This document shows, piece by piece, positions 8,238-62,612 of a DNA stretch of 64,000 nucleotides. Position 1 is the stretch's first letter, and every line of letters begins with the position of its first letter. Source of the DNA: a virus; IMG/VR virus record IMGVR_UViG_3300045988_180190; one strand, written 5' to 3'. The notes beneath the pieces are model-generated. The model made no database searches, was not told where the DNA came from, and saw nothing but the letters and a program-made list of their open reading frames with translations. The position numbers and the translations under genes are program-made.

Positions 8238-8396
8238 TTCGCTATGACTATGTCAACTACTCACTAGACGAGCTAGTGAGCTTGTAACTAGGTATTACTA
8301 CCTGCTACAATAGGCTTGTTGGCGGAAGCCCTAAATTCCTCGCAATAGACAAGCTATTGCATATCCTTTCGGGATTTTAAATGAATAAAAATTAAA

Positions 8397-8753: not shown

Positions 8754-9094
8754 AGTGTTTTGATAGGTAATGATTTATGTAACCACTGCACATAATAATT
8801 CCTACTTCTTAAAAAATTATTCAGAATAATTACGTCACAGCAATTATTTTAATTGTGTTAACGTATTTTACTGCGCAGTCGATGTCAATACCTATTTTTA
8901 AACAAATCAGACATCAAGATAAAAAAGTATTTCCTTAAGTGAGTAATTATTGTCTTTTACACCAAAACGGATAAGGGAATATCCTAAATGCCTTCAAGAG
9001 CTATTATACGTATTTTTGGATTATTAAAAAATTAATGTTGAAAGCTTATTTATTTTAATCAAGTATATATGCACTACACAATTTATATAAGCAT

Positions 9095-9754: not shown

Positions 9755-9776
9755 AATTATCATTTACTAAAGTTTT

Positions 9777-9810
9777 AAAAAAACCCAGTGTGCTATACAC
9801 TGGGTTTTTT
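9777..9810. terminator. bidirectional terminator between convergent genes
   Basis: A7-CCCAGTG-tgctata-CACTGGG-T6. Confidence 0.8.
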
Positions 9811-9828
9811 GTATGCCTAGATTAACCT

Positions 9829-10212
9829 TTACTTACACCTTGTATTCCAAGCTTCTGCAGCTTCTTTACTTCTGCCGGAGCCTTCTATCTGGGCCCCGCA
9901 GTTATTGCATGAAACAATGTAAAATACGTCTTTATCATGATATTCTTCAGCACTTAATTCTATATCCTTGCTACCGCAGAACGGGCAAGGCTTTAGCTGC
10001 ACTTCTTCAATAGAATCAACCTGAAAGCTGTTGTCGCAATACTCATTATTATATTCATAAGTATAACTTACTTCTTCAGTCGATTTATCCATAGCTCTTA
10101 AAGCTTGTTCAAGTTTTTCCTTAGCCTCATCCAAGCTATCTGCTTTTACTTTAGCTGATCCTCCAGAAAGTATAACTTCTGAGCAACAAAAATTTAAATC
10201 ATAGGTATTCAT
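9829..10212 (-). CDS. Lar-like restriction-alleviation protein (C-terminal zinc ribbon)
   Basis: CPFCGS...CNNCGAQ...EAAEAWNTR matches the Lar-family pattern CPFCG..C..CG...A..AWNRR. Confidence 0.55.
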   Translation of the reverse strand: MNTYDLNFCCSEVILSGGSAKVKADSLDEAKEKLEQALRAMDKSTEEVSYTYEYNNEYCDNSFQVDSIEEVQLKPCPFCGSKDIELSAEEYHDKDVFYIVSCNNCGAQIEGSGRSKEAAEAWNTRCK

Positions 10213-12369: not shown

Positions 12370-13107
12370 TTAATTCTCCTTTTCTTGTTGACTTGGGTTA
12401 GTAAATATAACTGGATACTTTTCTTTAAGTATATCCTCCATACTTTTAGCTATTACTTGAATATCAGGGTGAGCTCTTGGTGAAGTTCTAAGATCAAGAA
12501 AGTTTAGCAATGACCTTATATTCATAGTAGATATGATTTCAGTCTTTAAACACCCTGGCAAAGACACACGAGCTTGCTGGGGTTTCCAACCTAAGTCCAA
12601 CTTCATATTATATGAAAACTCAGCACGTTTTATGTCTTCAATCCAATTACAAACGCACTTTATATCCTTATCAATATCTGGATTATTTAACTCATACAAT
12701 ACCGAAGACTCATCCCTGGATTGTAACAAATTGTTTGCCTTTTCTATTTGTTCCCAGGTAATCCATTGAGGTTTTACAAAGGTTAGTCCCTTCTTAGAAT
12801 CCCCGTAATTACAATACCTAGTGCTTTCCACAGACAAACTTTGTATTCTATGTCTTGCATATTCCTGCAATACATCTCTTGAGGTTATTATTCTAAATGT
12901 AAACGAAACATGCTCAAGAGTTGAAGTGTGTCCATTATCTAATACAAGCTTTATTATAGACTTCCATGAGTCATCAGTAATCTTGTCTTCGGATTTATAA
13001 CAGTTTCGTATACATAACTCTAGCAACTTCATTGGAGACTCACCGCTCAAGTCATCCAACGCATAGGTTTGTCCTAGTAAGCTTACGCTTGGATCTATTA
13101 TTTTCAT
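12370..13107 (-). CDS. thyX: FAD-dependent thymidylate synthase
   Basis: ThyX signature ARHRIQSLSVESTRY (RHR..S....S.R). Confidence 0.85.
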   Translation of the reverse strand: MKIIDPSVSLLGQTYALDDLSGESPMKLLELCIRNCYKSEDKITDDSWKSIIKLVLDNGHTSTLEHVSFTFRIITSRDVLQEYARHRIQSLSVESTRYCNYGDSKKGLTFVKPQWITWEQIEKANNLLQSRDESSVLYELNNPDIDKDIKCVCNWIEDIKRAEFSYNMKLDLGWKPQQARVSLPGCLKTEIISTMNIRSLLNFLDLRTSPRAHPDIQVIAKSMEDILKEKYPVIFTNPSQQEKEN

Positions 13108-18198: not shown

Positions 18199-18510
18199 TT
18201 AACCTATTTTACTTTCAATAAATTTTATAAATTCTCTGATCTGAACAATAGGATAATGATGCAGCGGAGTATTTGGTATTCTATCCCCGTTCTTTTTCAA
18301 GACTGAAATCAAAGAATTACCAGGCTTTATGTCCTTGTCTTTAACATGGATTCTAGCAAAACAAATGGCTCCAATATTTCCGGCGGGAATAGCTGGGGGA
18401 TAATCTAAATACGGAGTATCCTCAACGGTTTGCCAGTAGTCCTGCAATATTGGGAGCATTACTGTTGAATAGTACGCGACTTGTGAATCTTTTGTTGTTT
18501 TTTTACTCAT
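18199..18510 (-). CDS. hypothetical protein
   Basis: 103-aa ORF. Confidence 0.55.
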   Translation of the reverse strand: MSKKTTKDSQVAYYSTVMLPILQDYWQTVEDTPYLDYPPAIPAGNIGAICFARIHVKDKDIKPGNSLISVLKKNGDRIPNTPLHHYPIVQIREFIKFIESKIG

Positions 18511-18532
18511 ATTTCCCTTTTTTTAGTTATAG

Positions 18533-18946
18533 TTACTTTGAAAATCCATAGTAGTCGTCTTCGGTACCGAGGTCCAAATTACGCATATTTGTAAAATCTA
18601 GCTCTTCCTCCGGGTCTAGCTTAGCCAATACATCATCTTCAAATACAAGAAATAAAGATTTACCCTGATCTGATACGAATGTTACCTTGTTATTCACAGA
18701 TAAAATTCTATCCCCAACGGATATTCCTAATTCTTTTCCATTTACATTATCAGGAATTTCCACTACGACTCCAGATATCGGAGTATCATTTTTTATCGAA
18801 GGGTTGCTAAACGAATTAAATAAATCCGTTATAACATCACCACTCTCACTTACTTTATCCTTTAATACTAATATCCTTCCATTTGCATGCACACTTGGTA
18901 CATAAGAATGTAAGGCATCCTTATCAATAATAATTTTTTCTGGCAT
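18533..18946 (-). CDS. hypothetical protein, weakly GroES-like
   Basis: ANGRILVLK...SGVVVEIP...VGDRILS...DDVLAKL. Confidence 0.3.
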   Translation of the reverse strand: MPEKIIIDKDALHSYVPSVHANGRILVLKDKVSESGDVITDLFNSFSNPSIKNDTPISGVVVEIPDNVNGKELGISVGDRILSVNNKVTFVSDQGKSLFLVFEDDVLAKLDPEEELDFTNMRNLDLGTEDDYYGFSK

Positions 18947-19549
18947 TTAGTTTAAGTCAGGCAAAAAGCCTATGTTTTTATGGTTAGTCTTATTAGTTAA
19001 AATTGTATCTAAAGATTTAAGATGGGAATACTTAGGTTTTAAAGTACGCTTTCTTCTACCCTTAATCCAACGTAATTCCTCTGGAATATATCCAATGTCC
19101 TGAAAAAATTCACTAGGAACCACTTTATTGACATGCTTATGATATTTCCAAAAAACCAATTTTTGATGGATAGGGAAAATACGGTCGCCCCCAAATCTAT
19201 TATATCCCCCTTTTACATCCACATAAAATTCATCATCTGATAACCTTAATTTACAATAATCACCTAGAACTGAATTATAATACACTTTTGGATTAACTTT
19301 CACCCAAAAATCAGCAGTATAACTGTGCTCTCTATATAAAACCTTCGTGCGTAGTTTTTGCTTACCTGATTTTGTAGATACCACAGTAGTTTCCACTGCT
19401 TTTGGAACAAGCAAAAAAGATTTGGGCTGATATGAAAAATCTATAATCAACCCAAGCCTTTTAGCATCCCTTAAGAAAATATAAAACTGAATTTCTTCTT
19501 CAGAATCAAACTCAATACCCTCATACTTAAGCTTATTCTTGTTTGTCAT
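18947..19549 (-). CDS. putative PD-(D/E)XK nuclease (DUF1064-like resolvase candidate)
   Basis: YTADFWV ... YVDVKGG spacing typical of a D...(D/E)xK core. Confidence 0.35.
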   Translation of the reverse strand: MTNKNKLKYEGIEFDSEEEIQFYIFLRDAKRLGLIIDFSYQPKSFLLVPKAVETTVVSTKSGKQKLRTKVLYREHSYTADFWVKVNPKVYYNSVLGDYCKLRLSDDEFYVDVKGGYNRFGGDRIFPIHQKLVFWKYHKHVNKVVPSEFFQDIGYIPEELRWIKGRRKRTLKPKYSHLKSLDTILTNKTNHKNIGFLPDLN

Positions 19550-35369: not shown

Positions 35370-35560
35370 TGAGTAATATGCCCGCAGCAAGCGGGCAAAA
35401 TTAAACAAGGGACACAAGCCCTTACACCCATGAAATAGTATCATGGCTGACATTCTCCAACCACTAAAGTAGTTGGGTTCTCCTAACCTCACGGTTTAGG
35501 TTTTCTGTTTCATCGGCGACTGCATTGGATGCTTCTGCATCCTTTAGTCTTACACCACCT
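35370..35560 (-). ncRNA. putative omega RNA (reRNA) of TnpB
   Basis: Overlaps the tnpB 3' end. Consecutive hairpins at 35428..35446, 35407..35423 and 35379..35397 (GCCCGC-ttgct-GCGGGC). Confidence 0.45.
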
Positions 35561-36663
35561 CCACAGACAAACACGACTTGCCCAGCCGCTAAAATATTTT
35601 TAGCTGCGTTTATATCTCTATCTAATACACTTCCGCAGACTGGACATGTCCAGGACCTTTCGGAAAGCTTTAAGTTTTGTTTGATATAACCGCAGTGATT
35701 GCAAGTTTTAGAGGAAGGAAAAAATCGATCAATGATTTTTAGCTCTCTTCCATACCACTTACATTTGTATTCCAATATATTGCGCAACATACTCCAAGAA
35801 GAATTGGAGATAGCGTGTGCTAACTTATGATTTTTAAGCATATTTTTTACTGCAAGATCTTCCATAACTATCGTTTGGTTTTCACGAATTAGTTTGGTTG
35901 TAATCTTATGTAAATTATCTATACGCTTATTTAAAATTGTTTGATAGCATTTAGCTACCTTGACGTTTGCTTTGGTTCTATTCTTAGAACCTAACTTTTT
36001 GCAAGAAGCCTTACGTTGCAATCTTCGTAATTTATTAAAATCTTTTTTAGTATCCGGATTTTTGAATACTTCCGCATTTGAAGTTGTTATTAAATTGTGC
36101 AGCCCCAAATCCAGACCTACGGATTTATTTGAAACGGGAAGTTTGCAATCTTCATTACGATCTACAGTAATTGAAAAATACCATTCTTGAGAAGGTGTTA
36201 ATCTAACCGTTAAGGAGATTAATTTATCTGTAGGTTTAATTCTCCAATTATCTTTAGATAATTTTAAAGGTTGCTTGGACTTAGCAATATAAACTTGGTT
36301 ATTTTTGATTCTAAACCCCGAAGTAGTAAATCTTGCTGAACTTCCTGAAGATTTCTTTTTAAACTTAGGGTATTTGGCGCGTTTTGCAAAAAAGTTATCA
36401 AACGCTGCGCCTAAATTTTTTATAGCTTGTTGTAAACAAACATTAGATACTTCATTTAACCATGAGTATTCAGGCTGACGTTTCCATTTTGTAAGCTCTT
36501 TCATTAAATCAAACGAACTTAATGATTTGCCTGTTTGCGTAAATGTTGAAGACTTAAGATCAAGACTTTTATTATAGATAAACCTAGCGCATCCCAAGGT
36601 TCTACGTAGAAGAATCTCTTGATCTTTTGTAGGATAAAATCTATGCTTTATAGTCTTTATCAT
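35464..36663 (-). CDS. tnpB: RNA-guided endonuclease TnpB
   Basis: N-terminal HRFYPTKDQEILLRRTLGCARFIYN. RuvC residues in GLDLGLH, IVMEDL and DRDINAAKNI. Zinc finger CNHCG...CPVCG. Confidence 0.95.
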   Translation of the reverse strand: MIKTIKHRFYPTKDQEILLRRTLGCARFIYNKSLDLKSSTFTQTGKSLSSFDLMKELTKWKRQPEYSWLNEVSNVCLQQAIKNLGAAFDNFFAKRAKYPKFKKKSSGSSARFTTSGFRIKNNQVYIAKSKQPLKLSKDNWRIKPTDKLISLTVRLTPSQEWYFSITVDRNEDCKLPVSNKSVGLDLGLHNLITTSNAEVFKNPDTKKDFNKLRRLQRKASCKKLGSKNRTKANVKVAKCYQTILNKRIDNLHKITTKLIRENQTIVMEDLAVKNMLKNHKLAHAISNSSWSMLRNILEYKCKWYGRELKIIDRFFPSSKTCNHCGYIKQNLKLSERSWTCPVCGSVLDRDINAAKNILAAGQVVFVCGGGVRLKDAEASNAVADETENLNREVRRTQLL

Positions 36664-44324: not shown

Positions 44325-47300
44325 TTATCCACAAGCGGACCACCCGCAGCTATAACATTTTTTACAACCCTCTTCTCGCAGGACTTTACCCCCACAGACG
44401 GGACAGGTCTCTCCCAAGTCTAACTTACCAGCGCATTGTAACAACACCTTGTTTATAGCTTTTACAATCGATGTGAAATCTCCTTCAGTTTTAGATAGCT
44501 GATGTATAATTTCTTTTAATGATACACCAGATTGAAGATTCAAAGCTACCAGTCTTGCCAAGGCTGTAAGCGTTGCCTTATCCGAGGACTCATTTGTTTT
44601 AACTATTTTGTAATGGAATTTGCCGTCCTTAGAGGTAAACTCAAATGTAGCTTTAGCTATTTTTCTTAATGTTCCCTCCTTGACGTGTTTAGGTATAATC
44701 CTACGGCGTTCAACCCATTCTCCTTCGTCATCAAATATATTATCCTCATTTATATCTATAAACATCTCAAAGGGGCAATCTCCAAGAAAGCTTACTATAA
44801 AGTAGTAGGATACTCCTTTGACTGTTCTAAAGAATACCCTACAAGGCAAAACGTCTGGACGTTTATCAGCAGTTATTGTTGGGTGGATAATAGAAGTAGA
44901 AGTTGGATTTACGTCTTCTTTAGCATCTGTAGACTGTAAGACGGCACTCATTGAGCCTTCTCTGTAGGTAGTAACCCCTTTAATTACTCCGCTATTATAT
45001 GCGTCTAAATAAACGTTCTTAAACTGTTCATAAGGATAGTCCTTACCGACATTTATCGTTTTACTTACAGCGGAATCCAAATGCGCAGATACGAGTTTCA
45101 GAATTTCCAGATGAGATTCAACAGGCAATTGCATAGCTGTTGTGAAAACTTCCTGTGGATATTCTAAATTATGATCCTTAATCCATTGATAGGCATAATC
45201 TCTTATGAGCACCTTCTTGCAAAGACCTCTATCCTTATGTATCTGATACTCTACGCCATCTTCTCCTGTGTAAGTTAGATACGTGAAGTCAGCATATTTA
45301 GCTTCTTTAAAGTACGCATTAGGTTTAAAGTCTCCCTCCCAGAATCTAGGGCATTTATCTCTTAGAAAATCTGGAATATTAGGCATTCCTACGATGCGGT
45401 AGTACTCTAGTTGAAATACAGGTTCTACGCCTCCTGAAATATTATTTGCCAAACAACCAGTATTTCCCGTGGGCTGGACTGAGAACAAGGCTGAATTGCG
45501 AATGCCGTTAGTTTCTAACAATTCTTTTTGCAAAGCATCCAATATATACTTCGGCAGATGTCTAAACGTATATTTTATATTATCAGCATGTTTTGCAGGA
45601 TTACATCCTTTAAACGCACCTTTACATTTAGCTAAAGCAATGCTTGCCCTTATCCCTAAGAAATTATAAACATCAAAAACTTTAGTTAAAAAGTCTTTAG
45701 CTTCCGTAGAATCATATTTTAAACCCAACATCATTAAGGCAGAACCTATGCCTGTAATGCCAAGTCCGATTCTTCGATAGCTTTCAGCCATATATTTATA
45801 TTCTTTCAAAGGCAGATTCGCAATGTCTATGACATTATCCAAGAATCTTACGCAATAAGGAATAATATCGGAAAACTTCTGAAAATTAAAAACAGCAGCG
45901 TGTTTGATTTCATCATATTCTATAAATGCTGTGAGATTGATGGATCCTAAATTGCAGCATCCTCCGCTGTATAAAACCTGCTCTCCGCACTGCTGATTAT
46001 TAAGCATATAAAATTTTGGATGTCCATGTTCGTTCACAGTTTCAAACATCCCAACGCAATAATTATGCACATCATCAACTGTACCGGTATAGACATCTTG
46101 TTTGCCTATATATTCAATAGACACAATTCTATGATTAAAATCAACAGCCTGCGTCTTTAAATCCGCGTAAGAACGGAAAGCAGAAATCGGACCAAATCTA
46201 TGAGGAATCTTATTTTGTTTGCAATAAGAATCAAACTCACATTTAAATGGATCTCTTGACAGAGCAAATTTTAAATCCGTATAAGCTTTAAGTTGTCTTA
46301 TTCTATTCTCACCTTTTGTCTTAGAAGCATAGTTTGAAATTCCCTGTCGCAAATGCTGTATGTAATTTTCCTGCTTAAGTTTGTTACGATTCACACAGAG
46401 ATTTGAACAAAAAGCTACTTCCCTGCTTTGGAAAGGTGTAAAGAACTCTTTACCACAATTTTCACAAATCTTTTTTACTAAAACTCTATTATTAACAATC
46501 TTTGTTTCATAACCTTGTGATACGGCATTTAGATATGTTCTTTGCAACCTACTATCACATTTCATTAAATCATTATAAACACCTAAAGCTTTAGCAGCAT
46601 ATTTACAAATATCACGAATACCTCCGCCTCCAAAAAACTTGACACGATAATCATCATTAAATGACTGTAATACGTGAAAACCTCTAGAAGCTAACTCATC
46701 TTGTAATTCTTTTACAGAGAAGAATCTTTGATATTTTAAAATTAAATCTTTCGCAATATCTAAAAGTATCTCATTAGAAACACCTTTATAATTCTTATTC
46801 TTTTCTCCAAATGAAGCATTTTTTTGCTTCTCTTTATAGGAATCCCACTTTGCCTTAGTCCACTCTGTAGCGGCACGACACATAGGATTAGTCTTTCCAA
46901 ACATACGCTTACAATGTAAAGCATCATGCGCAGCTTTTGACATAACTTCTAAATTATCTAAAGAATTATTTAATCCGTTATAATCCTTATGATGCACAAC
47001 TTCTGCATTAGTGAGTCTTCTACCTATAACATATTCAGCATTAATGCGATGTAATGCCTTGCGAGACTTTTTTCCGGAAGTCTTTATCCAAGCATATAGT
47101 TGAGAATTACTCGATCTATTAAAGATTTCATTAAACTTCTGGTATGAAATAGAAGCAACATACAAAGATTCTCCTGGGGACATATCTTTTACCTCTTTAT
47201 ATGTACCATCGGATAATCTAAACTTATGATTAGACGTGCAATCAATATGATTACCATCATCTAAAGTCACTCGATAAATATCTTTATTATAGCCTGTAAT

Positions 47301-48467
47301 ACGAGGATTACGCATTAACTTTGTAACAATATTGCCAGCATTATCACAAGCTAACACCGGAACATCTCTGCCAGCTTCGGCCAACTCTTTAATAGTCACA
47401 TTTGTACGCCCGTCAGCAACAGCAACTTTGGTATCTCCAGTAAGACAAGGATTTGTCCCAACTAATTGCAACTCAGGTATATAGTTTGCGCAATGTGTCT
47501 CATTTGCCCTATCGAGAAATAAAACTCCAGGTTCCGAACGATTGCTAGTAGACTGCATTAAAGCTTCCCACAAATCCGTAGCCCTAACTGTGCGATAAAC
47601 TTTAACGGGGTAACCTTTTTTCTCCCATTTATCCAAGTCTCCATCCCATTCGGATTTATATTTTTCAAAAGCCGTATCAGGAAATCTCAATTGCCAAAAA
47701 TCAACAGCATCGATTTCTTCCTGCGAAGCATTGTTTTTAACAAGATCGTTAACTCTATTTAAAATATCCATAAAAGCATTGGTAACATTTACGGACATAT
47801 TCATTTTCGTTAAATGAAACGGCTTTTGCTTGGCAGTAATAAATTCGTAAATATCAGGGTGCCAGCAGCTTAAGCATAGCATCATTGCGCCCTTACGAAT
47901 TTTCTTCTTTTCGTTCTTGGGCGTTTTTTCTTTACTCTCTATATAATAATCTCCCGGACCTTCCGTAATAATCTCGGAACTTTTATCAAACAGCTCCAAA
48001 TACTTCACAGCGCCGGGTGTTCTAGCACCTATGCCTTCTATATAAGAACCTCTGGGACGAATAAAACTGCAATTTAAACCCCAACCCCCTTCAGATTTTA
48101 AAGTCAAAACCTGATTCTTTAAGACCTCCATGATTCCTTCAACGGAATCCATATCATACTTAGGTTGGGGGGATAAAAAACAGTTGACGAGGGAGACATT
48201 TGTGCAATTTCCCCCGGCATTTGCCAATATGCGGCCTCCGGGTATAAACTTAAAATCTTTTAAAATATCATAAAAAGCATTGGCATAAAATCTTTTGGAT
48301 TCGTCATCCTTTTCTACGTTAGCTACGGCATTTGCCACACGTCTCCATGTATCTGTAATACTATTTTCATTTTGCGTTTTATAAGTTACTTCCCAAATCT
48401 GACGGGAAAAATCATTCGTAAACGGATCCGGATTATCCGGAGTTTTTGCTTTTAATTGTTCGTCCAT
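44325..48467 (-). CDS. ribonucleotide reductase, class II-like, intein-containing
   Basis: GTNP[intein]CGEQVLYSGGCCNLGSINL restores NPCGEQ...CNLGSINL. C-terminal Cys cluster CPVCGG...CKKCYSCGWSACG. Confidence 0.8.
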   Translation of the reverse strand: MDEQLKAKTPDNPDPFTNDFSRQIWEVTYKTQNENSITDTWRRVANAVANVEKDDESKRFYANAFYDILKDFKFIPGGRILANAGGNCTNVSLVNCFLSPQPKYDMDSVEGIMEVLKNQVLTLKSEGGWGLNCSFIRPRGSYIEGIGARTPGAVKYLELFDKSSEIITEGPGDYYIESKEKTPKNEKKKIRKGAMMLCLSCWHPDIYEFITAKQKPFHLTKMNMSVNVTNAFMDILNRVNDLVKNNASQEEIDAVDFWQLRFPDTAFEKYKSEWDGDLDKWEKKGYPVKVYRTVRATDLWEALMQSTSNRSEPGVLFLDRANETHCANYIPELQLVGTNPCLTGDTKVAVADGRTNVTIKELAEAGRDVPVLACDNAGNIVTKLMRNPRITGYNKDIYRVTLDDGNHIDCTSNHKFRLSDGTYKEVKDMSPGESLYVASISYQKFNEIFNRSSNSQLYAWIKTSGKKSRKALHRINAEYVIGRRLTNAEVVHHKDYNGLNNSLDNLEVMSKAAHDALHCKRMFGKTNPMCRAATEWTKAKWDSYKEKQKNASFGEKNKNYKGVSNEILLDIAKDLILKYQRFFSVKELQDELASRGFHVLQSFNDDYRVKFFGGGGIRDICKYAAKALGVYNDLMKCDSRLQRTYLNAVSQGYETKIVNNRVLVKKICENCGKEFFTPFQSREVAFCSNLCVNRNKLKQENYIQHLRQGISNYASKTKGENRIRQLKAYTDLKFALSRDPFKCEFDSYCKQNKIPHRFGPISAFRSYADLKTQAVDFNHRIVSIEYIGKQDVYTGTVDDVHNYCVGMFETVNEHGHPKFYMLNNQQCGEQVLYSGGCCNLGSINLTAFIEYDEIKHAAVFNFQKFSDIIPYCVRFLDNVIDIANLPLKEYKYMAESYRRIGLGITGIGSALMMLGLKYDSTEAKDFLTKVFDVYNFLGIRASIALAKCKGAFKGCNPAKHADNIKYTFRHLPKYILDALQKELLETNGIRNSALFSVQPTGNTGCLANNISGGVEPVFQLEYYRIVGMPNIPDFLRDKCPRFWEGDFKPNAYFKEAKYADFTYLTYTGEDGVEYQIHKDRGLCKKVLIRDYAYQWIKDHNLEYPQEVFTTAMQLPVESHLEILKLVSAHLDSAVSKTINVGKDYPYEQFKNVYLDAYNSGVIKGVTTYREGSMSAVLQSTDAKEDVNPTSTSIIHPTITADKRPDVLPCRVFFRTVKGVSYYFIVSFLGDCPFEMFIDINEDNIFDDEGEWVERRRIIPKHVKEGTLRKIAKATFEFTSKDGKFHYKIVKTNESSDKATLTALARLVALNLQSGVSLKEIIHQLSKTEGDFTSIVKAINKVLLQCAGKLDLGETCPVCGGKVLREEGCKKCYSCGWSACG
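45990..47447 (-). mobile_element. large intein (486 aa) with an HNH endonuclease domain in the RNR active-site motif
   Basis: Starts CLTGDTKVAV (Cys341). Block B is CTSNHKF. HNH motif VVHHKDYNGLNNSLDNLEVMSKAAHDALH. Block F-like VYTGTVDDVHNYCVG. Last residues are NNQQ before Cys827. Confidence 0.8.
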
Positions 48468-55135: not shown

Positions 55136-55588
55136 AGATTATTTTTTTTTCGGTAGTTGTAAATACAGGAAGCCGCCGCAGGGAGAAAGGAGGAAGCCCT
55201 GCGACGGCTCGAGTAGTTAACAATCATTTTACCAATTATCCAGTTGCCCAGATTTTAGCCTTGCGAGATTCCCCGTGTGGCTTAGCCTCTTGGTAGCGGC
55301 TGAATGGCTTAAACTTATAAAATTTAATTAATTATTAATGTACATAACTTCATGTTAATGTCCAGAAAAAAACATATTTTGTTAATAAAAGTAAAGCCAG
55401 AGATTGTCTGCACCCTAACGAACAGGTGTAATTACTACCTGTGGGGAATCGGCGTAGTATTTTCTTATTGCACCACACTCTTTCAGTGGCCTACCTTAGC
55501 GATAAGGCGTATACTCATACTTTTTGACTGACCGTGACAATCTACGGAAAGGTTGCTACCCTTTATTTGACGCCTCTGGCAAAGAACG
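55136..55588 (-). ncRNA. candidate large structured RNA immediately 3' of tRNA-Asn
   Basis: Long-range 8-bp pairings AGATTGTC/GACAATCT and GATTCCCC/GGGGAATC. 12-bp stem GCCGTCGCAGGG/CCCTGCGGCGGC whose G-U pair exists only on the minus strand. No ORF. Confidence 0.35.
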
Positions 55589-55660
55589 CTCCGAGAGAAG
55601 GGCTTGAACCTTCGACCAAGTGATTAACAGTCACCCGCTCTACCACTGAGCTATCTCGGA
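55589..55660 (-). tRNA. tRNA-Asn: tRNA-Asn (anticodon GTT)
   Basis: Hand-folded cloverleaf: acceptor TCCGAGA/TCTCGGA, D stem GCTC/GAGC, anticodon stem GGTGA/TCACT, loop CTGTTAA, T stem GAAGG/CCTTC, loop TTCAAGC, discriminator G. No encoded CCA. Confidence 0.9.
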
Positions 55661-56067: not shown

Positions 56068-59000
56068 TTAAACATTTTTCAGTTTTAGCTGAAAAATATC
56101 TGCAGCGCATATTCTAGCTGGCATTACCAAATACCTTGAGTGTACTACCATCATATAATGTTCTCCACTGGCGGTTTTGATCATAACTATATCATACCCA
56201 CAATAGAGATCCTCAATTTTACTTGGATGTTTAGGCATAAACCTAACTACATTAGTATAATCAGGTATACACTTTGAAAGTACGGCTTTGTCTAATAGTG
56301 CAAATAAAAGGTTATCTTGCACTTTAATCCCTTCTTCAAGACTTTCCACTTTTATGATACTCCTACGGGAACTTGTCACTGTGGAATAATCTACAAAGTT
56401 TAAACCTGAGGGATTTGATATTTCTATGCGAGTCCTTTGGTAGTACTCATTTGTTACTAAGTTATTACTATTAAAATAATTATCTAGAGTGTCATTTATA
56501 AATGGTATTTTAGTACAAGCATTTATGTGGTCTAGATCCTTATCTTCATATGGTTTAACGATCCTAGATAAAGCTTTGGATATAATAAGCTTTATGGTGT
56601 CATCTAATTGATCACCGTAGGTTTCTTTAACTCCTATTTTTATCCCATAAAGGAACTCGAGTGCACTTAACAGCATATTGCTTGTGAGCACAGTACATAA
56701 AGAGGTAGACTCCACAATACGTGAAATCGAGTTTTCTTTAAGATAGATTTCCGTGTTAAATACTCCCCCGTTCGCGTATTGACCTTCGTCCAAATAATTC
56801 CTTACTTGATTCAGTTCTTTTGTATCATTCCTAAATATAATTTGGAACAATGCATTACTAAGATCTATAACAGAATACTTTCCGAGTACCGGAGTGAATG
56901 TTTTAATGGAGTCACCCCAAGTATCTTTTACATTGGCGGATTCCGCATTATTTATATACAGCCCCACGATACCCAATATATTGCTGTCATATATTGCCTG
57001 CTGTACAGCACTTTCATAGTTGCCAAGGCACACTCTATAGTTGCATCCCGCAGCACTATGCACTGAAGCTTTATATGCATATATACTTGGACGCGCTGAT
57101 TCCAGATATGTGATTGTATTCACATTTATTGGATCAAAAATCTGGTCAACAATGTCGTCTACATGATCATTGAGTGTATTAGCCTTTTTGCTGTAACCAA
57201 TTATCTTTAGAACTTCGTATCTTTTAGGGCTTTTAGAATAAAGATATATACCCGTGGAAGAGCTTACTTTACCTCTGCTAAAGTCTACTGGAATATATAA
57301 TCCAAGTACTCCAAGTTCATATTGTAAACCCGTCCTAGGATCCGTAATAGGATTTGGTTGGAAGGATACCTCAATACCGTCCTTGCACAGAATTACTTCT
57401 ATAATTTTTTTATTTTTTCTCAGATTATTAATCTGAGTAATTATATTATCGCAAGTGGAGATATCTTGTTCCTTTGTGAAGTCTAAATCCTTACATTCCA
57501 GTAACTTTTTGTTTAGCTCCTCGATTTCTTTTAGCTTTTCATTTCTCGCTTTTATTAAGCTGTTACTGTCGCTAAAGCTATCTAGAAAACGTTGCCAATA
57601 TACGTGGAAGCAATTAGTTTTAGTTATATAATTGATGAGTGCCTGCGTTGTAACACCTTTTAAGTGTACTATATCGTTGAGACACAACATTGTAGAGTTA
57701 TAATCCTCATCGTATTCTATTAGATCTCCTAAATCCATGCTAAGGTCACCTCGGATCTTAGATACCCAGTCCATATACATATGGGGATGCTTAAATGCAT
57801 TTCTTATAACTATTTTACTTATATTGTTTTGAAATATATAAGGTTCTAGCCTGTTGCTAAGATACTTAATCTGCTGTACTTTTTGATCATTAGTAGTAGT
57901 GATATCAACAAGTATTTCGGATAAAGCAATCTGGAAATTAAGATCTCTAATTTTTCCCGCGTCTCCATTACTGACTGCTACTGGTAAGGATAACTGTGCT
58001 GCTACTGGATTGAAAATTCCATAGATAGCCTCCATGTTTTGCGAAAACAGTAGTAGGTCACTATAGTAGAACATTTCGAACTTGTCCGCCATCGGTGTTA
58101 TATCTACAAAGTCAAACAAATTTGTGTATCCAATGTCTAACTTTGGGTATATACGCCTCCAATTATACGACTGCGTATAAGGTCGCATATCAACAATTTC
58201 AGACTTATCCGGAACTAATCCCATTAACATGCTTTGGTGACACTCTTTTCTGTCTCTTGTATCTGGGACGGACATTGTTGGACCGTTATAGAAACAATCT
58301 TTCAGGTATTCTATCAATTTACTTCCCTTGTATTCTTCTAGGGAATTATCCATTGCCACATTAAATACTTGTGCTAGATTCCTTGAGGAAGAATACTTAT
58401 CTCGTTGTATTGTGTAGACACCTTGGATCCCTTTCCACCTAAAAATTTTATGCCCGTTTTCTACACGGGTTTGGAAAGGTAGCGCTTTGTAGGCCACGGG
58501 TAGTGACGCAACTGTTAGTATTTGGGTAACACTTTTTACCCTGAATGCTTTCATATCCAGATATATATTATCTGGAATGTAAACTTTTAGATTTGTGTGA
58601 GGCAACACTTCTGTGGGAAAATCTGAAATAGTATTTTTCCATTCTGCTACCGTTTTATCTTTATTTATCGCATAATCATACGTTATAAAGTTGAGGGATA
58701 TAGCTTTGTATTGAGCTTCTTTATTTTTTGAATACTCATGGAACGCGTCTAACAGTTCGTTTAAATAGTCCAAGTTCTTTATCAACTGTAGATACGCTAT
58801 GATATAAAAATTACCTTCATTTAGGTCTAATACTATATCTTTTATAAGTTCGGAAAAATCCAACAATCCCTCCAAAGTCATCCTGTTAGGAAGATAGAGG
58901 TTATTGTACAATTTATCTCCAAAATCAACTCCACGCATTAGGAGCTGACAAAGATATCCATTGACATTTCTTGCTATTGCTTCACTGGTAGTCCTCTTAT

Positions 59001-59871
59001 TCTTTAAGAATTGTATATCTTGAAAGAATACCAAATGCCTACTTAAATTTTTTCTAAGGAGAGCATATTTTTTACCTGTTTTAACTTGGTCTATTAGATC
59101 ATCGAATAGCGTTTTAATGATATAACTTTTTGATTCATTAAACGTATTCAGTTTTTCAGCTATTTTATTTAGTTGTGTAGTATCGCTTGCTGATAAATAT
59201 TGTTTCAGTATTTTAAGATAATAAGAGGGATCCACAAATGGTATAAAAATTCTTTCATCTCTGGAATTAAAAAATAAAATTGTGTCAGTCTTGGACTTTG
59301 GCCATATCTTTACACATCCAAATGGGAAGCACTCGTTGCGACTTGATGGGTCAAACGTACTACTGCATCCTGTGATGTTAAACTTATCTAAATCTTCTGT
59401 ATACCCAGAAAACAGTTGCACTTCATTAAATAGTGGACGCAGTACCTTGAACCTATCTAATAATTTAGAGTCATTATCTCCAAATATATCATCTATAAAT
59501 TTGCCTATTACAGGAAAAATACAGTATGGATTATTATAATTAAAAAATAGGTCCGTCTCTTTTCTAGATAGAGATGGTTCCTTCCACACGTCTAAAAGCT
59601 TCTTTTCATCTATCTCCAATAAACCTGACTTAGTATTAAGCTCAAGTTCAGATACTTCGGTATCTTCTATTTGTGTGGAGTCTACGTTAAACATTGCGTA
59701 GATTCCCATTAGCCAATTAAATGAGTCTTTTTTCGGAATAGTTTTCAAATATTCCACAGTTGCCATCGGAACCTCCATGAGAATACGGTTCCTGTAAGGA
59801 ATGGAATAGCTGAACTGTTTCTTAAGTTTTACATTACGCTTTTTCTTATTAAAAATATCATCAATTGTCAT
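56068..59871 (-). CDS. very large hypothetical protein; weak candidate for the missing RNAP beta-prime C-terminal part
   Basis: 1267-aa ORF. Residues 297-316 AIARNVNGYLCQLLMRGVD resemble the bridge helix ALKTANSGYLTRRLVDV at about the expected distance after DFDGD. Confidence 0.7.
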   Translation of the reverse strand: MTIDDIFNKKKRNVKLKKQFSYSIPYRNRILMEVPMATVEYLKTIPKKDSFNWLMGIYAMFNVDSTQIEDTEVSELELNTKSGLLEIDEKKLLDVWKEPSLSRKETDLFFNYNNPYCIFPVIGKFIDDIFGDNDSKLLDRFKVLRPLFNEVQLFSGYTEDLDKFNITGCSSTFDPSSRNECFPFGCVKIWPKSKTDTILFFNSRDERIFIPFVDPSYYLKILKQYLSASDTTQLNKIAEKLNTFNESKSYIIKTLFDDLIDQVKTGKKYALLRKNLSRHLVFFQDIQFLKNKRTTSEAIARNVNGYLCQLLMRGVDFGDKLYNNLYLPNRMTLEGLLDFSELIKDIVLDLNEGNFYIIAYLQLIKNLDYLNELLDAFHEYSKNKEAQYKAISLNFITYDYAINKDKTVAEWKNTISDFPTEVLPHTNLKVYIPDNIYLDMKAFRVKSVTQILTVASLPVAYKALPFQTRVENGHKIFRWKGIQGVYTIQRDKYSSSRNLAQVFNVAMDNSLEEYKGSKLIEYLKDCFYNGPTMSVPDTRDRKECHQSMLMGLVPDKSEIVDMRPYTQSYNWRRIYPKLDIGYTNLFDFVDITPMADKFEMFYYSDLLLFSQNMEAIYGIFNPVAAQLSLPVAVSNGDAGKIRDLNFQIALSEILVDITTTNDQKVQQIKYLSNRLEPYIFQNNISKIVIRNAFKHPHMYMDWVSKIRGDLSMDLGDLIEYDEDYNSTMLCLNDIVHLKGVTTQALINYITKTNCFHVYWQRFLDSFSDSNSLIKARNEKLKEIEELNKKLLECKDLDFTKEQDISTCDNIITQINNLRKNKKIIEVILCKDGIEVSFQPNPITDPRTGLQYELGVLGLYIPVDFSRGKVSSSTGIYLYSKSPKRYEVLKIIGYSKKANTLNDHVDDIVDQIFDPINVNTITYLESARPSIYAYKASVHSAAGCNYRVCLGNYESAVQQAIYDSNILGIVGLYINNAESANVKDTWGDSIKTFTPVLGKYSVIDLSNALFQIIFRNDTKELNQVRNYLDEGQYANGGVFNTEIYLKENSISRIVESTSLCTVLTSNMLLSALEFLYGIKIGVKETYGDQLDDTIKLIISKALSRIVKPYEDKDLDHINACTKIPFINDTLDNYFNSNNLVTNEYYQRTRIEISNPSGLNFVDYSTVTSSRRSIIKVESLEEGIKVQDNLLFALLDKAVLSKCIPDYTNVVRFMPKHPSKIEDLYCGYDIVMIKTASGEHYMMVVHSRYLVMPARICAADIFQLKLKNV

Positions 59872-59896: not shown

Positions 59897-59929
59897 AAAA
59901 AAGGGAGCTATAGATTTTCTATAGCTCCC
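59897..59929 (-). terminator. hairpin terminator
   Basis: GGGAGCTATAG-aaaat-CTATAGCTCCC followed by T6 (minus strand). Confidence 0.75.
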
Positions 59930-59954
59930 CGACACGGTTAAAATTTAATACAGA

Positions 59955-60455
59955 CTAGTTACCCTTAGATTGAGTGGCAATCTGAATGAAATCGCCGTCA
60001 TTCGGAACTATGAATGCAGCGTCGCCAGAGATATTATCTCCAGCACCATTCAGACGCACGTCCCACATTCCGCTTTCTACGTCTATACGAACATCCGGGA
60101 AATTGTCCAGGATCATCTTTACACTCCAGTTAGACGGTACAGTTACTTCCCTAAGCTGTGATTGGAACGGCACTACCGTGACCGTTTTTGTTGCAGCCGG
60201 TGTTTCCGCTTCATCTTCTGCCGTGGCACGGTTGGTTTCTTCTTCTTGAGGTTCTTCTACCTGTGTTTCTTCTTCGACTGTGTTGATATAGTTTATCACG
60301 TCTTCCTTCAAAGAGCTGAAGGAACCCCAGTACTGGTACATATCGCCTTCAGATATTATCTTATTCCTTCCACGAATAATGCGGTCCCTTATGAGTTTGG
60401 AAACGTTGTAGTTGATGGATTCTGCTATAGTTTCGATGATTTCGTTCTTTGTCAT
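59955..60455 (-). CDS. putative ubiquitin-like (ThiS/MoaD-type beta-grasp) protein with an HU/IHF-like N-terminal segment
   Basis: C-terminus VRLNGAGDNISGDAAFIVPNDGDFIQIATQSKGN resembles ThiS/MoaD tails (..GD.I.I....GG). N-terminus MTKNEIIETIAES...GDMYQYWGSFS resembles IHF/HU. Confidence 0.4.
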   Translation of the reverse strand: MTKNEIIETIAESINYNVSKLIRDRIIRGRNKIISEGDMYQYWGSFSSLKEDVINYINTVEEETQVEEPQEEETNRATAEDEAETPAATKTVTVVPFQSQLREVTVPSNWSVKMILDNFPDVRIDVESGMWDVRLNGAGDNISGDAAFIVPNDGDFIQIATQSKGN

Positions 60456-60549
60456 ATTGTTTATTCCTTTTTTGTTATTGATTGATTGTTGACTAGTTGT
60501 TGATTGATTAATGATTGGTTATTAATTGGTTTTTAATTGCTTGTTAGTA

Positions 60550-61263
60550 CTACACCCTATACATAAAGTTAAAGTTAGGGCAAACAGAAAATAAAAGTTC
60601 AAACTCTGGGAAAATTTTTACCTTTTCTTCAGTCTGATCTTTTTGTGATACAGTCCATTTAATAAACTGCCATACAGCCATGGAAGCTACCATAGAAGAA
60701 GAGGCTCCCATCATTAGTTTAGTTCCACATTCACTAGTCTCAGCTTGGTCATCCGAGTACAGTGTCTTTTCCCAACGTGTTTGTCCGACTATGTCAGTAG
60801 GATTAAATGTATATACCCTACCTTGTGTTGCGGACAAGCGTGTCTCAACACATATTTTTGTTAACGAATATTTTAAGCAGTTTTCGTATATCTCCTTTCT
60901 TGATGCCATTGTGTCGGTTAATAGAAATACAACATCCCCTAAAGTACCTGTGGAGCTATCCACAAATTCTTTATGTGTTATAATGTCTATATCCGTTATT
61001 GATTTGATAAGTTGTTTTAGCGCTTCAACTTTTGGTTTCCCAACGTCTCCAACACCATACAACTGATTGGGAAGATTGTGGCTTTCCACCTCATCGTTAT
61101 CCCACACATGGATATTTTTTATACCCATTTTTGCTAACTGTAAAACGACATAGGAGCCAGTGGCACCAGCTCCTATAACGTCTATACGCAAATTTTTACT
61201 ATTGAATTGGTGCGGGTCAAGGAAGTGTGCTTGCCTTTCAAAATCAATTTGTTCAAAATTCAT
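60550..61263 (-). CDS. ThiF/MoeB/E1-like adenylyltransferase
   Basis: VIGAGATGS nucleotide loop, VWDNDEVESHNLPNQ (cf. D.D.V..SNL.RQ), GKPKVEAL, LLTDTMASR. Confidence 0.7.
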   Translation of the reverse strand: MNFEQIDFERQAHFLDPHQFNSKNLRIDVIGAGATGSYVVLQLAKMGIKNIHVWDNDEVESHNLPNQLYGVGDVGKPKVEALKQLIKSITDIDIITHKEFVDSSTGTLGDVVFLLTDTMASRKEIYENCLKYSLTKICVETRLSATQGRVYTFNPTDIVGQTRWEKTLYSDDQAETSECGTKLMMGASSSMVASMAVWQFIKWTVSQKDQTEEKVKIFPEFELLFSVCPNFNFMYRV

Positions 61264-61266
61264 ATG

Positions 61267-62043
61267 TTATTTAAAAAACTCCTTATTTGTCAGTTTCCCT
61301 ATTTCTCTAGACTCTTCAGGTTGCTTTAATATAACTCCTTCGTCACAATTCGGTTTTTGATAATCTTTTGATAGTGCGTTATCGAAAGGGTGACCCCAGT
61401 GACTGCAATTACTGGATGCATCAGCCTTGTCCATATATGAAGAAGTTTTCCAACTCCCAATACTATAGTAACTTGGCTTGGGTTTTATCTCGGAAACTTT
61501 AGTCCTTATATCCTCAAGAATTTCCGTAATAGTTTCATCTGGAAGATTCCATTTTGTTTTAACCTCAAGATCTTCGTAAGCGATTCCATGTTCAAAATCA
61601 TAGAAATCTACTCTTATGTCTCCTCGTTTATTAAATATAGCCGCAATAAGATACGGTTTTGTTTTAAACGTTAGCGCATTACTTAAATCTTGTCCACTAG
61701 GGGACACTGACATATCTACGTGGGAATGACCCCAGAAGTTTAAAGAGTTTAATCGCTGCTTCTTCTGAGCATTTGTAAGCGTGTTATCTTGAATGATACT
61801 AGAGGTTAGCTCATTAAGACCTTCTGCCGACTGCTCAGTAGTTGTAGCACTACGCTCTTGCTTTGTAATAAATACATCCGTAATAACATATATCTCACTA
61901 TTGGGATTATGGGAAACACTTCCCATAAATCCAATTTCCATAGGCTCATGGTCCACAATGAACCTTATTTTTTCAAAAGCATGGGAATCAATATAAACTT
62001 TTGGTATAAAAAATTTTTCTGTATCAAGAATTTTTATATTCAT
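61267..62043 (-). CDS. JAB/MPN (JAMM) metallopeptidase
   Basis: EPMEIGFMG plus FWGHSHVDMSVSPSGQD (H-x-H-x7-S-x2-D). Confidence 0.75.
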   Translation of the reverse strand: MNIKILDTEKFFIPKVYIDSHAFEKIRFIVDHEPMEIGFMGSVSHNPNSEIYVITDVFITKQERSATTTEQSAEGLNELTSSIIQDNTLTNAQKKQRLNSLNFWGHSHVDMSVSPSGQDLSNALTFKTKPYLIAAIFNKRGDIRVDFYDFEHGIAYEDLEVKTKWNLPDETITEILEDIRTKVSEIKPKPSYYSIGSWKTSSYMDKADASSNCSHWGHPFDNALSKDYQKPNCDEGVILKQPEESREIGKLTNKEFFK

Positions 62044-62048
62044 AGTTA

Positions 62049-62612
62049 TTACTTTCCAGTTGATCCGAACCCACCCAAATTACGCTCACTTTTACTAAGT
62101 TCCCCATTACGCTGAAACTCTACGTGCACAGTGGGTTCAAACTTTACCTGTGCAATACGATCTCCCTTATGGTACGTCATTGGACGGTTACTGATTATAT
62201 ATTCGTCTACTGCACGTTTAAAAATAGATTTCCATCTCTTACACAAACCTATAGCTCCAGAGTCATTTAGATCTTGTGTTTTCGTTTTTTCGATTCCTAT
62301 TTTCAATGCATTTAGCATAGTAATCCCCGGTAATTTATAAAGCACTACACCCCATTCATTACGGTAGTCACTGTCAATAGTTCCAGCCTTTACAGTTACC
62401 CTGGAACCAACGGGCATTGAACTGCGCTCTAGCAATCTTGCCCCATACCCAGCTGGGATTTCTGTATGAAGACCCGTTTTTGCTATTACGAGTTCCCCAG
62501 GGAAGATTGTAACATCTTCCTCTAGGTATACATCAGCGCAATGGGCGCCTTTGGATTTATATTCGGGAGCTTTTGCAGCCCCAGTGTATTTTACAATAAT
62601 TTTTGTATCCAT
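62049..62612 (-). CDS. dut: dUTPase with an internal insertion
   Basis: Motif 3 AGTIDSDYRNE, motif 4 GDRIAQ, motif 5 GGFGSTG. Confidence 0.85.
   Translation of the reverse strand: MDTKIIVKYTGAAKAPEYKSKGAHCADVYLEEDVTIFPGELVIAKTGLHTEIPAGYGARLLERSSMPVGSRVTVKAGTIDSDYRNEWGVVLYKLPGITMLNALKIGIEKTKTQDLNDSGAIGLCKRWKSIFKRAVDEYIISNRPMTYHKGDRIAQVKFEPTVHVEFQRNGELSKSERNLGGFGSTGK

Follow-up and report, generated by a model that had tools for sequence, protein, structure and literature searches.

The 64,000-nt stretch of viral DNA in IMG/VR record IMGVR_UViG_3300045988_180190 (hereafter the window) carries adjoining genes for a JAB/JAMM peptidase, an E1-like adenylating enzyme and a protein with a C-terminal ubiquitin-like (Ubl) domain, with a gene for a 1267-aa protein that contains a putative E2-like domain directly downstream. 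On balance, we lean toward the view that these genes form a complete cassette for Ubl activation and conjugation, of a family that has not been described before, in which an E1 to E2-like cascade would be served by a JAB peptidase with both processing and deconjugating activity. The parts of the cassette are supported by homology and synteny, and we infer every catalytic step from the sequence.

An initial annotation of this DNA had placed three adjoining genes between a dUTPase gene and the gene for the 1267-aa protein, within a phage replication block, and the coordinates of the three open reading frames (ORFs) were recovered exactly (Table 1). The dUTPase and JAB genes are separated by 5 nt and the JAB and E1 genes by 3 nt. 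Proteins encoded in the window include a DNA polymerase, ribonucleotide reductase (RNR), primase, UvsX-like recombinase, helicases, DnaB, ThyX and an RNA polymerase beta-like protein; since this content is one of replication and nucleotide metabolism, the description of the surroundings as a phage replication block holds. A near-identity DNA search against phage records gave no match for the window; over the E1 gene, it is 100% identical to a 164-kb contig in IMG/VR. Related loci were collected by scanning species-representative genomes with an E1 alignment, which returned 59 loci, all in metagenome-assembled genomes (MAGs) and referred to below as cellular; with 11 phage loci these make a set of 70.

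The 258-aa protein had been called a JAB peptidase from a JAMM signature, both parts of which, EPMEIGFMG and HSHVDMSVSPSGQD, are present. Searches of Pfam, PHROGs, NCBIfam and the PDB with the single sequence gave nothing usable, its match to the PADLOC JAB model was weak (E=0.018), and no single JAB sequence reached the Pfam Prok-JAB gathering score, so family profiles were needed. The window protein was aligned with eight homologues, each taken from the gene directly upstream of the E1 gene in another phage. In this alignment of nine, H106-S-H108, S116, D119 and the glutamate E36, which make up the zinc-binding E...H-x-H...S...D set of the JAMM/MPN+ family, are invariant. The nine-member profile matched JAMM deubiquitinases alone in the PDB, with E-values from 4e-6 to 7e-4 (Rpn11 at 3.9e-6, CSN5, archaeal JAMM1 and BRCC36). 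The HxH..S..D motif is intact in 67 of 68 JAB family members, and the C-terminal ~100 residues are not conserved. The family profile matches and the invariant catalytic residues uphold the JAB call, and we identify the protein as a predicted JAMM/JAB metallopeptidase.

The E1-like protein scored 106 bits against Pfam ThiF (cut-off 28.1), and all three adenylation signatures pointed out initially, GAGATGS, DNDEVESHNLPNQ and TDTMASR, are present. Its recognisable features are a GxGxxGS nucleotide loop, the N-terminal Arg R10, K78, the Mg-binding residue D117 and C179. The loop, K78, D117 and C179 are invariant in an alignment of eight diverged phage E1 homologues, and the conservation of G31, G33, K78, D117 and R10 supplies the GxGxxG loop, Mg-binding Asp and Arg finger expected of the ThiF/MoeB/E1 family. 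A phmmer alignment covering ThiF residues 29-207 placed C179 near ThiF Cys184. The Arg of the N-L-x-R-Q motif, a canonical ATP contact, is replaced in the window E1, which reads NLPNQ in alignments with PaaA and MccB. This replacement is family-wide, as 67 of the 70 E1s have Asn or Gly at the position (Asn in 63). The curated NCBIfam equivalogs for ThiF, MoeB, UbaA and TcdA were all far below their cut-offs, the best being TIGR02356 (ThiF) with 79.5 bits versus 275. Judged by its sequence, the protein is a ThiF-family adenylating enzyme that belongs to no curated housekeeping family. When its profile was searched against the PDB, matches were obtained to PaaA (9e-16), 9egb/9egc (1.2e-14), MccB (5e-13), ThiF (4.5e-11) and BubCD (4e-7), and further to TcdA, MoeB, UBA enzymes and Cap2. 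PADLOC returned partial matches to Cap2-type 'E1-E2' models that were confined to the Rossmann region. The second-best solved match (9egb/9egc/9egd) is a 264-aa 'THIF-type NAD/FAD binding fold domain-containing protein' that keeps the N-L-x-R-Q Arg; a literature search on PDB codes 9EGB and 9EGC found no relevant paper.

The third protein was examined through its relatives, because the window protein alone had no Pfam match and single-sequence searches of Pfam, PHROGs, NCBIfam and the PDB gave nothing usable. In phages whose E1s are 42-45% identical to that of the window, the E1 gene is followed by a free-standing gene for a 73-76-aa protein that aligns end-to-end with residues 89-166 and ends KGN, as do all 11 further family members found in databases. 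An iterated hidden Markov model (HMM) detected the Ubl family in 56 of the 70 loci and the window protein itself at E=4e-17. A profile of 52 Ubl sequences was compared by hhalign with a manually compiled ThiS/MoaD/SAMP/Urm1 reference and matched at 96.7% (E=4e-10), and none of 60 column-shuffled profiles reached the real score (maximum 14.2 versus 51.0). Pfam ThiS itself matched family members, best in L028 (6e-7; 30.4 bits, cut-off 22.5) and more weakly in L074 (7e-4) and L024 (5e-3), and there was no significant match of the family to ubiquitin or NEDD8. These results provide strong support for a predicted ThiS/MoaD-type beta-grasp domain in the last ~78 residues of the 166-aa protein, as the initial annotation had supposed.

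The first 88 residues of the protein are confined to phage lineages that carry the 1267-aa protein (they are conserved in the L007/L015 and L023 orthologues), and the free-standing orthologues lack them. AlphaFold2 (AF2) gave this extension secondary structure at a predicted local distance difference test score (pLDDT) of 50-68, and its acidic linker is probably disordered in view of the prediction. A resemblance of the N-terminus to half of an HU/IHF fold, suggested earlier, was rejected: BLASTP and PDB searches matched it neither with HU nor with anything else in the PDB. Two other loci deserve mention with regard to the Ubl family. In L021, a 111-aa ORF ending ...KAGG was considered as a di-Gly Ubl and rejected, as it looks like a helix-turn-helix protein; the actual family member there is a 68-aa ORF ending ...KTKGNAAL. 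L081 (Obscuribacteraceae) has two Gly-Asn Ubl copies (6885-7139 and 8934-9185), each followed by one of a pair of paralogous ~176-aa proteins (8313-8846 and 9393-9923), which may be dedicated partners or targets of the Ubl.

The 166-aa protein ends in ...NDGDFIQIATQSKGN, and nothing follows the Asn. Gly-Asn was found in 53 of 59 Ubl family members. Thirty-two end exactly there, 21 have one to three additional residues (K, N, R, S, C, A, Q, RS, QS, HS, LS, EEV or AAL), and the remaining six are fused or otherwise different. Seven poly-Ubl precursors consist of two or three repeats, each closing with ...RGN or ...QGN and then a linker of 10-15 residues. Since Gly-Asn is conserved and the tail beyond it varies, the conserved unit includes the Asn, and the family departs from ThiS, MoaD and ubiquitin, which end in Gly or Gly-Gly. 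Counted in alignment columns from the first position of the DGD motif, the Asn comes 14 residues later, as does the terminal Gly in ThiS, MoaD, SAMP1, CysO and Urm1. In the hhalign comparison, the Gly of Gly-Asn paired with the penultimate Gly of Gly-Gly and the Asn occupied the slot of the last Gly of ThiS/MoaD, suggesting that the Asn rather than the preceding Gly is the activated residue. The initial annotation had described one residue after a Gly that the JAB enzyme would trim. There is indeed an Asn after the Gly, but it does not behave as a disposable residue, because it is conserved with the Gly and variation begins only after it. The simpler of two readings is that the Asn is the mature terminus and would be the one activated; the other possible reading is that it serves as a strict P1' determinant for cleavage between Gly and Asn. 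As a precedent for the latter, BilC of E. aridi removes a single BilA residue by cutting G97|A98 (PMC10557695), so that trimming at Gly/Asn may still occur here, although it is no longer the simplest reading. Under either reading, the poly-Ubl precursors and the residues after Gly-Asn call for an endopeptidase in this family, and this accounts for the JAB.

The initial annotation saw no E2 at this locus. The 1267-aa protein gave no match in Pfam, NCBIfam or PADLOC, and an exhaustive phmmer search over 1.84 billion representatives returned only three clusters. For the most distant of these (P0041), the match was limited to residues 768-1017, the segment that bears the H938...N951 motif (codons 57019-57063, VHSAAGCNYRVCLGN). 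The P0041 locus has the gene order of the window, with dUTPase, JAB, E1, a Ubl ending ...KGN and the giant protein, and the giant protein stands beside the cassette in three diverged phage lineages (the window, L015 and L023). Within its E2-like domain, an 'AESANVKDTWG' motif lies downstream of the H...C motif. In diverged phage loci, the gene upstream of JAB instead encodes a ~400-aa protein containing 'MHPHISSAGVACLGN'; the family of this fourth gene adjoins the cassette in 55 of the 59 cellular loci and in several phages. The core of the giant protein aligned with this family by hhalign at 98.8% (E=1e-16, 166 columns), and the fourth-gene HMM matched the 1267-aa protein at 6e-8. Early comparisons of the 1267-aa protein with the fourth-gene family or with E2s, made with shallow profiles, were not significant, and the link to the fourth gene became significant only after P0041 and the cellular homologues were added. 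Proteins of the crAss001 gp78 type fall in the same superfamily as the fourth gene (99.7%, E=1e-25). We are therefore confident from these profile matches that the giant-protein domain is homologous to the fourth gene of the cassette, so that an E2-like partner probably does adjoin the three genes in the window.

The relationship of the fourth gene to E2 enzymes was assessed by aligning its core with six manually compiled canonical E2 sequences, which gave an hhalign match of 80% (E=1.4e-5) over 78 columns. The alignment covers the GG-x-F-type strand (beta3), beta4, the HPN position, the Cys, helix 2 and the PN loop. None of 60 shuffled profiles reached the real score (maximum 21.0 versus 38.6). 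The fourth-gene motif [HA]-P-H-[VI]-x3-G-x2-C-L-G-N has the spacing of the E2 motif H-P-N-[IV]-x3-G-x-[IV]-C-L. The AF2 model of P0025, a gp78-type member, had a pLDDT of 83.5 overall and 85-97 in the N-terminal domain, where a helix (residues 3-16) is followed by four strands, a His/Cys loop (H88/H90...C106) and two helices. The model topology is thus compatible with a UBC fold; both the HPN-type motif some 8-10 residues before the Cys and the order of helix, four strands, loop and helices are those expected of an E2. Foldseek searches of the model against BFVD found uncharacterised phage proteins only. We consider it fairly probable that the fourth gene is UBC-like.

The initial annotation had discussed the cassette in the setting of a lytic-phage replication module, but it is not special to lytic phages, since cellular genomes carry it as well. 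The gene order JAB-E1-Ubl is shared by dozens of cellular MAG loci and several diverged lineages of phages, which together with the ThiF and JAMM profile matches shows that the motifs did not arise by chance. All four genes were found together in 47 of the 59 cellular loci and 5 of the 11 phage loci. The cellular hosts are Obscuribacterales/Melainabacteria, Saccharibacteria and other Patescibacteria, Flavobacteriia and one Thorarchaeota contig. At one Patescibacteria locus the cassette is flanked by genes for a HAD protein, an epimerase, a CCA/polyA polymerase and a pseudouridine synthase, and such housekeeping flanks indicate that it is truly cellular there. In 25 of the 59 cellular loci (L025-L067; for example L044, 6778-9117), the E1 gene is directly followed by one for a ClpB-like double-AAA+ ATPase (AAA_2, ClpB_D2-small). 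This neighbour is found throughout the Melainabacteria/Obscuribacterales clade, and phage cassettes are without it; from its position, tagging by the cellular versions may be tied to unfolding or degradation. Among phages, E1 homologues were present in 83 records, which include Flavobacterium FpV4-like, crAss-like (crAss001 among them) and Xanthomonas/Erwinia jumbo phages, and most of those annotated are labelled 'thiamine biosynthesis protein'. PADLOC, Pfam and NCBIfam do not recognize the system as a unit, and PADLOC misses the cellular cassette as well. Literature searches that combined crAss or phage with ThiF, JAB or ubiquitin found no paper describing it, in agreement with the earlier statement that no role had been characterised for a complete set in a lytic-phage replication module.

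Table 1. Features of the putative Ubl cassette and its neighbours. Positions are those of the window.
Feature	Position	Strand	Remarks
dUTPase gene	62049-62612		Upstream neighbour of JAB gene; Pfam dUTPase 4.8e-18
JAB/JAMM (MPN+) zinc metallopeptidase (predicted)	61267-62043	-	258 aa; catalytic set E36, H106-S107-H108, S116, D119
E1-like adenylating enzyme, minimal single-domain ThiF/MoeB type (predicted)	60550-61263	-	237 aa; Pfam ThiF 1.8e-30
Ubl protein gene	59955-60455	-	166 aa
N-terminal extension of Ubl protein	60192-60455	-	Two predicted helices (~aa 3-28, 36-65) and acidic linker (~aa 66-88)
ThiS/MoaD-type beta-grasp (Ubl) domain (predicted)	59958-60191	-	Residues 89-166 of 166 aa, ending ...DGDFIQIATQSKGN
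Ubl stop codon	59955-59957	-	Directly after Gly-Asn
Terminator-like hairpin	59902-59930	-	13-bp stem, 3-nt loop, T-run; between Ubl stop codon and giant-gene start
1267-aa protein	56068-59871	-	Carrier of E2-like domain; directly downstream of Ubl gene
Putative E2 (UBC)-like domain	56803-57447	-	~aa 809-1023 of 1267-aa protein; H938-x9-C948-L-G-N951

Prokaryotic operons with E1, E2, JAB and Ubl genes are as a kind already known (Iyer et al. 2006, PMC1779556), and those of the Bil and Bub systems combine an E1 and an E2 with a Ubl that is first processed by a JAB peptidase (PMC10557695, PMC11601596). Bil (BilABCD; type 6d of Iyer 2006) resembles the present cassette in that its JAB/JAMM peptidase, E1, Ubl and Cys-bearing E2-like protein are four separate components, in having no E3, and in the pre-processing of the Ubl C-terminus by JAB, which is a proposal in our case. 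The Bil E1, however, is a large three-domain IAD-AAD-CYS enzyme, and by this mark the single-domain ThiF-like E1 of the window, with its N-L-x-R-Q Arg lost, does not belong to Bil. The Bil Ubl has a conserved Gly with up to nine variable residues after it rather than a conserved Gly-Asn, and the Bil E2 has a CEHH motif and lacks the HPN His, unlike the fourth-gene motif described above. Consistent with these differences, PADLOC does not call the cassette components Bil and gives only the partial Cap2-type matches of the E1. Bub (6E/DUF6527; type 6e of Iyer 2006) shares with our cassette one to three beta-grasp repeats, varied N-terminal domains, a precursor-cleaving JAB and an E1 with an E2-like partner. 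Yet in Bub JAB is fused to E1 and, in type I, Ubl to E2, whereas JAB and E1 are separate genes here. Bub works through oxyester intermediates with an E1 that has no catalytic Cys, whereas the cysteines of E1 and of the E2-like protein are conserved in the present family. Bub precursors are cleaved after a conserved Gly and not at a conserved Gly-Asn, and the DUF6527 serine protease of Bub was not found among the scanned neighbours. The cassette therefore lacks the JAB-E1 or E2-E1 fusion, the DUF6527 protein and the Cys-less E1 that define Bub, with BubCD being only a distant PDB match of the E1.

Among phages, homologous E1s with 27-35% identity are encoded by crAss001 (within gp76-gp78) and by the 'ThiF' genes of FpV4, Dulem and Xanthomonas jumbo phages. 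In these phages, as in the window, the E1 gene is directly downstream of that of a JAMM peptidase (crAss001 gp77, annotated 'metalloprotease domain'), with a member of the fourth-gene family (gp78) upstream, in a replication module near uracil-DNA glycosylase (UDG) or dUTPase genes. The order in crAss001 is gp78 (fourth-gene family), gp77 (JAB), gp76 (E1), gp75 and UDG. Unlike in the window, no Gly-Asn Ubl gene is detectable beside cassettes of the crAss001 type; the crAss001 E1 has a ~150-aa N-terminal extension, and the spacing from His to Cys in gp78-type proteins is longer. Proteins of these cassettes are annotated as hypothetical or as ThiF only. The first 37 residues of the gp76 extension (L003, 5497-6648) end '...HPDGIIIQTAIVGG', which looks like a Ubl tail (DG-x-[IV]-x-[IV]...GG). 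The segment is too short for a full beta-grasp and might be the remnant of a fused Ubl or part of one with a mis-assigned start. The family to which the window belongs is set apart from known systems by its Gly-Asn terminus, its minimal E1 without the canonical Arg, the lack of any annotation for its E2-like family and, for the phage lineage of the window, the placement of the E2-like domain inside the 1267-aa protein.

We propose that the E1 would bind the beta-grasp domain and use ATP to adenylate its C-terminal carboxylate. The acyl group would then pass from Cys179 of E1 to Cys948 of the E2-like domain and finally to a phage or host protein, at a lysine or another nucleophile. JAB would process the precursors of those relatives with poly-Ubl proteins or with one to three residues after Gly-Asn, and would also reverse conjugation. 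As the Ubl gene of the window ends at Gly-Asn, no C-terminal trimming would be required here if the Asn is the mature terminus, which would leave deconjugation as the main task of JAB. The hairpin after the Ubl gene is probably the end of the JAB-E1-Ubl transcript or a point of its attenuation. A hairpin with a T-run of another sequence stands at the same position in L015 (8284-8316) and L023 (7945-7969), and L019 has no such hairpin after its free-standing Ubl gene. Since differing hairpin sequences occur at one place in two diverged lineages, the element appears to be a conserved terminator or attenuator, which suggests that the giant E2-like protein is produced in smaller amounts than Ubl, E1 and JAB. 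The place of the cassette in a replication module suggests an early or middle function.

Several observations weigh against this model. The missing N-L-x-R-Q Arg means that the nucleotide chemistry of the E1 may be atypical, and we know of no precedent for a C-terminal Asn in E1/E2 thioester cascades. Sets of a ThiS-type Ubl, a ThiF-type E1 and a JAB also occur as pure sulfur carriers. The AF2 model of the full 166-aa protein, of low confidence (mean pLDDT 45), shows only beta-beta-alpha in the C-terminal domain. For the E2-like component, Foldseek of the P0025 model against the PDB found no significant match (best E=0.15), and the only domain-length alignments were to UFC1, with TM-scores of 0.31-0.36 and E-values of 0.3-1.0. 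Searches with the fourth-gene family in Pfam (including UQ_con and Prok-E2), NCBIfam, PADLOC and PDB sequences gave no match, and a direct comparison of the giant-protein core with E2s was not significant, with 5 of 60 shuffles reaching the real score. The E2 assignment rests on an hhalign comparison in which the E2 sequences, like the ThiS/MoaD ones, were compiled manually. The Ubl and giant genes are set apart by the conserved terminator, and no conjugation target, E3 or substrate is identifiable.

The Gly-Asn terminus raises the possibility of a different chemistry, akin to that of the microcin C enzyme MccB. Here, E1 would adenylate the alpha-carboxylate of Asn166 and attack by the side-chain amide would yield a C-terminal aminosuccinimide. 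This would either be nucleotidylated to a protein-Asp/isoAsn-AMP phosphoramidate, as in microcin C, or react with a nucleophile, forming an unusual conjugate linked through Asn/isoAsn. Handling or reversal of such a non-canonical bond would fall to JAB and to the fourth protein with its Cys. MccB itself is homologous to E1 enzymes; its substrate has an obligatory C-terminal Asn, which is activated at the alpha-carboxylate, and the reaction proceeds via a succinimide (PMC4010828, PMC11118369). Such a scheme agrees with the conservation of Gly-Asn against variation in all that follows and with the position of the Asn in the slot of the terminal Gly. It is also in line with the presence of PaaA and MccB, the E1-family adenylating enzymes of the PaaA/PaaP and MccB/MccA pairs, among the best PDB matches, ahead of ThiF, and with the family-wide loss of the N-L-x-R-Q Arg, which suggests altered active-site chemistry. 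However, the PaaA and MccB matches span only the Rossmann half (query ~2-105) and are little better than those of ThiF or TcdA, and both enzymes keep the Arg that the cassette E1 family has lost. The MccB alignment begins at about MccB residue 111 and query residue 20, indicating that the window E1 lacks the N-terminal peptide-clamp (RRE-like) domain. MccB and PaaA act on short ribosomal peptides and not on a folded beta-grasp protein, which leaves the C-terminal Asn as the sole feature shared with the MccB type. The conserved E1 Cys, the E2-like Cys protein and JAB fit a thioester and isopeptide cascade and are absent from microcin-type pathways, and the conserved Asn could instead direct JAB, as a P1' determinant, to cleave between Gly and Asn. 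We regard it as unlikely that a folded Ubl is activated at Asn via a succinimide and linked through an Asn/isoAsn-type or phosphoramidate bond instead of a Gly isopeptide, which would be new to the E1 superfamily. If true, the target might be a protein, a nucleotide or a nucleic acid, the linkage would be used by phages during genome replication, and Melainabacteria and Patescibacteria would couple an Asn-linked tag to a ClpB-like unfoldase.

The cassette could also be a sulfur carrier system, in which the ThiS-like protein would be adenylated by E1, converted to a C-terminal thiocarboxylate with the help of host persulfide donors, and would then pass its sulfur on to a cofactor, a nucleotide, tRNA or a DNA base. 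The fourth protein, which contains the Cys, would be the sulfurtransferase and JAB the maturation peptidase (compare CysO/Mec+, QbsE/QbsD and TtuB/TtuD). The ThiS/ThiF, MoaD/MoeB, CysO/Mec+, QbsE/QbsD, TtuB/TtuC/TtuD and SAMP/UbaA systems share with the window the '...NG...DGD-x-[IV]...' tail of equal length and a single-domain ThiF/MoeB-like E1 with a Cys near ThiF Cys184, and JAB peptidases accompany the carriers in some of them, namely the CysO and Qbs systems. The Ubl family matches Pfam ThiS and not ubiquitin or NEDD8, and the cassette lies among dUTPase, ThyX and RNR genes. Yet known carriers end in Gly-Gly rather than Gly-Asn, and neither among the recognisable ORFs of the window nor fused to the E1 is there a rhodanese, cysteine desulfurase, PP-loop ATPase or radical-SAM partner, or any other sulfur donor or acceptor enzyme. 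The fourth protein is E2-like and not sulfurtransferase-like, and the poly-Ubl precursors together with the ClpB-like neighbour of the cellular loci fit protein tagging better. A sulfur-carrier function thus strikes us as quite improbable. Least probable of all, in our estimate, is that the phage copy serves to interfere with a host Ubl system, such as Cap2/Cap3 of the cyclic oligonucleotide-based antiphage signaling system (CBASS), Bil or a host Gly-Asn system, either by JAB stripping host conjugates or by Ubl, E1 and E2-like decoys that sequester or mis-tag host components. This idea concerns the purpose of the cassette rather than its mechanism and is compatible with the conjugation model that we favor. 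All four genes have close cellular homologues, so a phage could have captured a host system, and the E1 has its partial matches to Cap2-type models. Antiphage systems built from E1, E2 and JAB are moreover on record in Bil, Bub and type II CBASS (PMC10557695, PMC11601596, PMC10097602). On the other hand, PADLOC does not recognize the cellular cassette, at least one cellular copy sits among housekeeping genes and not in a defence island, and several diverged lineages of phages have kept all four activities intact, which speaks for a functioning pathway and against a single antagonist.

Other features of the window were recorded alongside. The sole tRNA gene, for tRNA-Asn (GTT), is at 55588-55660 (-), just 3' of the giant gene and a 124-aa ORF; its vicinity to a cassette whose tag ends in Asn is curious but probably a coincidence. 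The replication region contains a TnpB/IS605 OrfB-type gene at 35464-36663 (-) with HTH_OrfB_IS605, OrfB_IS605 and Cas12f1-like TNB domains, and the related contig L023 has a similar gene (18213-19454). The 1380-aa RNR large subunit (44325-48467, -) has an HNH endonuclease segment inserted at about residues 450-550, which suggests an intein or a homing-endonuclease insertion. A 1131-aa protein (588-3983, -) matches PHROG families annotated as RNA polymerase beta subunit, and from this match the phage probably has its own multisubunit-type RNA polymerase. Genes for a GNAT acetyltransferase (7454-8041, -) and for the flavin-dependent thymidylate synthase ThyX (Thy1; 12370-13107, -) are found elsewhere in the window.

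To our knowledge, Ubl conjugation in prokaryotes has been shown experimentally only recently, in type II CBASS, Bil and Bub, and always as host defence. What is new here is a family with all the parts that is located inside phage replication modules and is found as well in Melainabacteria and Patescibacteria, bacterial groups that have been little studied, often beside a Clp-type unfoldase. Its Gly-Asn tag implies either a very specific trimming step or the activation of Asn, which in the E1 superfamily we know only from MccB. Dozens of genomes of crAss-like, Flavobacterium and jumbo phages carry the label 'thiamine biosynthesis protein ThiF', which is almost certainly a misannotation. In crAss001, gp77 is a deubiquitinase-type peptidase and gp78 a probable E2-like enzyme, and the cassette thus offers a testable entry to the function of some of the most abundant gut phages.

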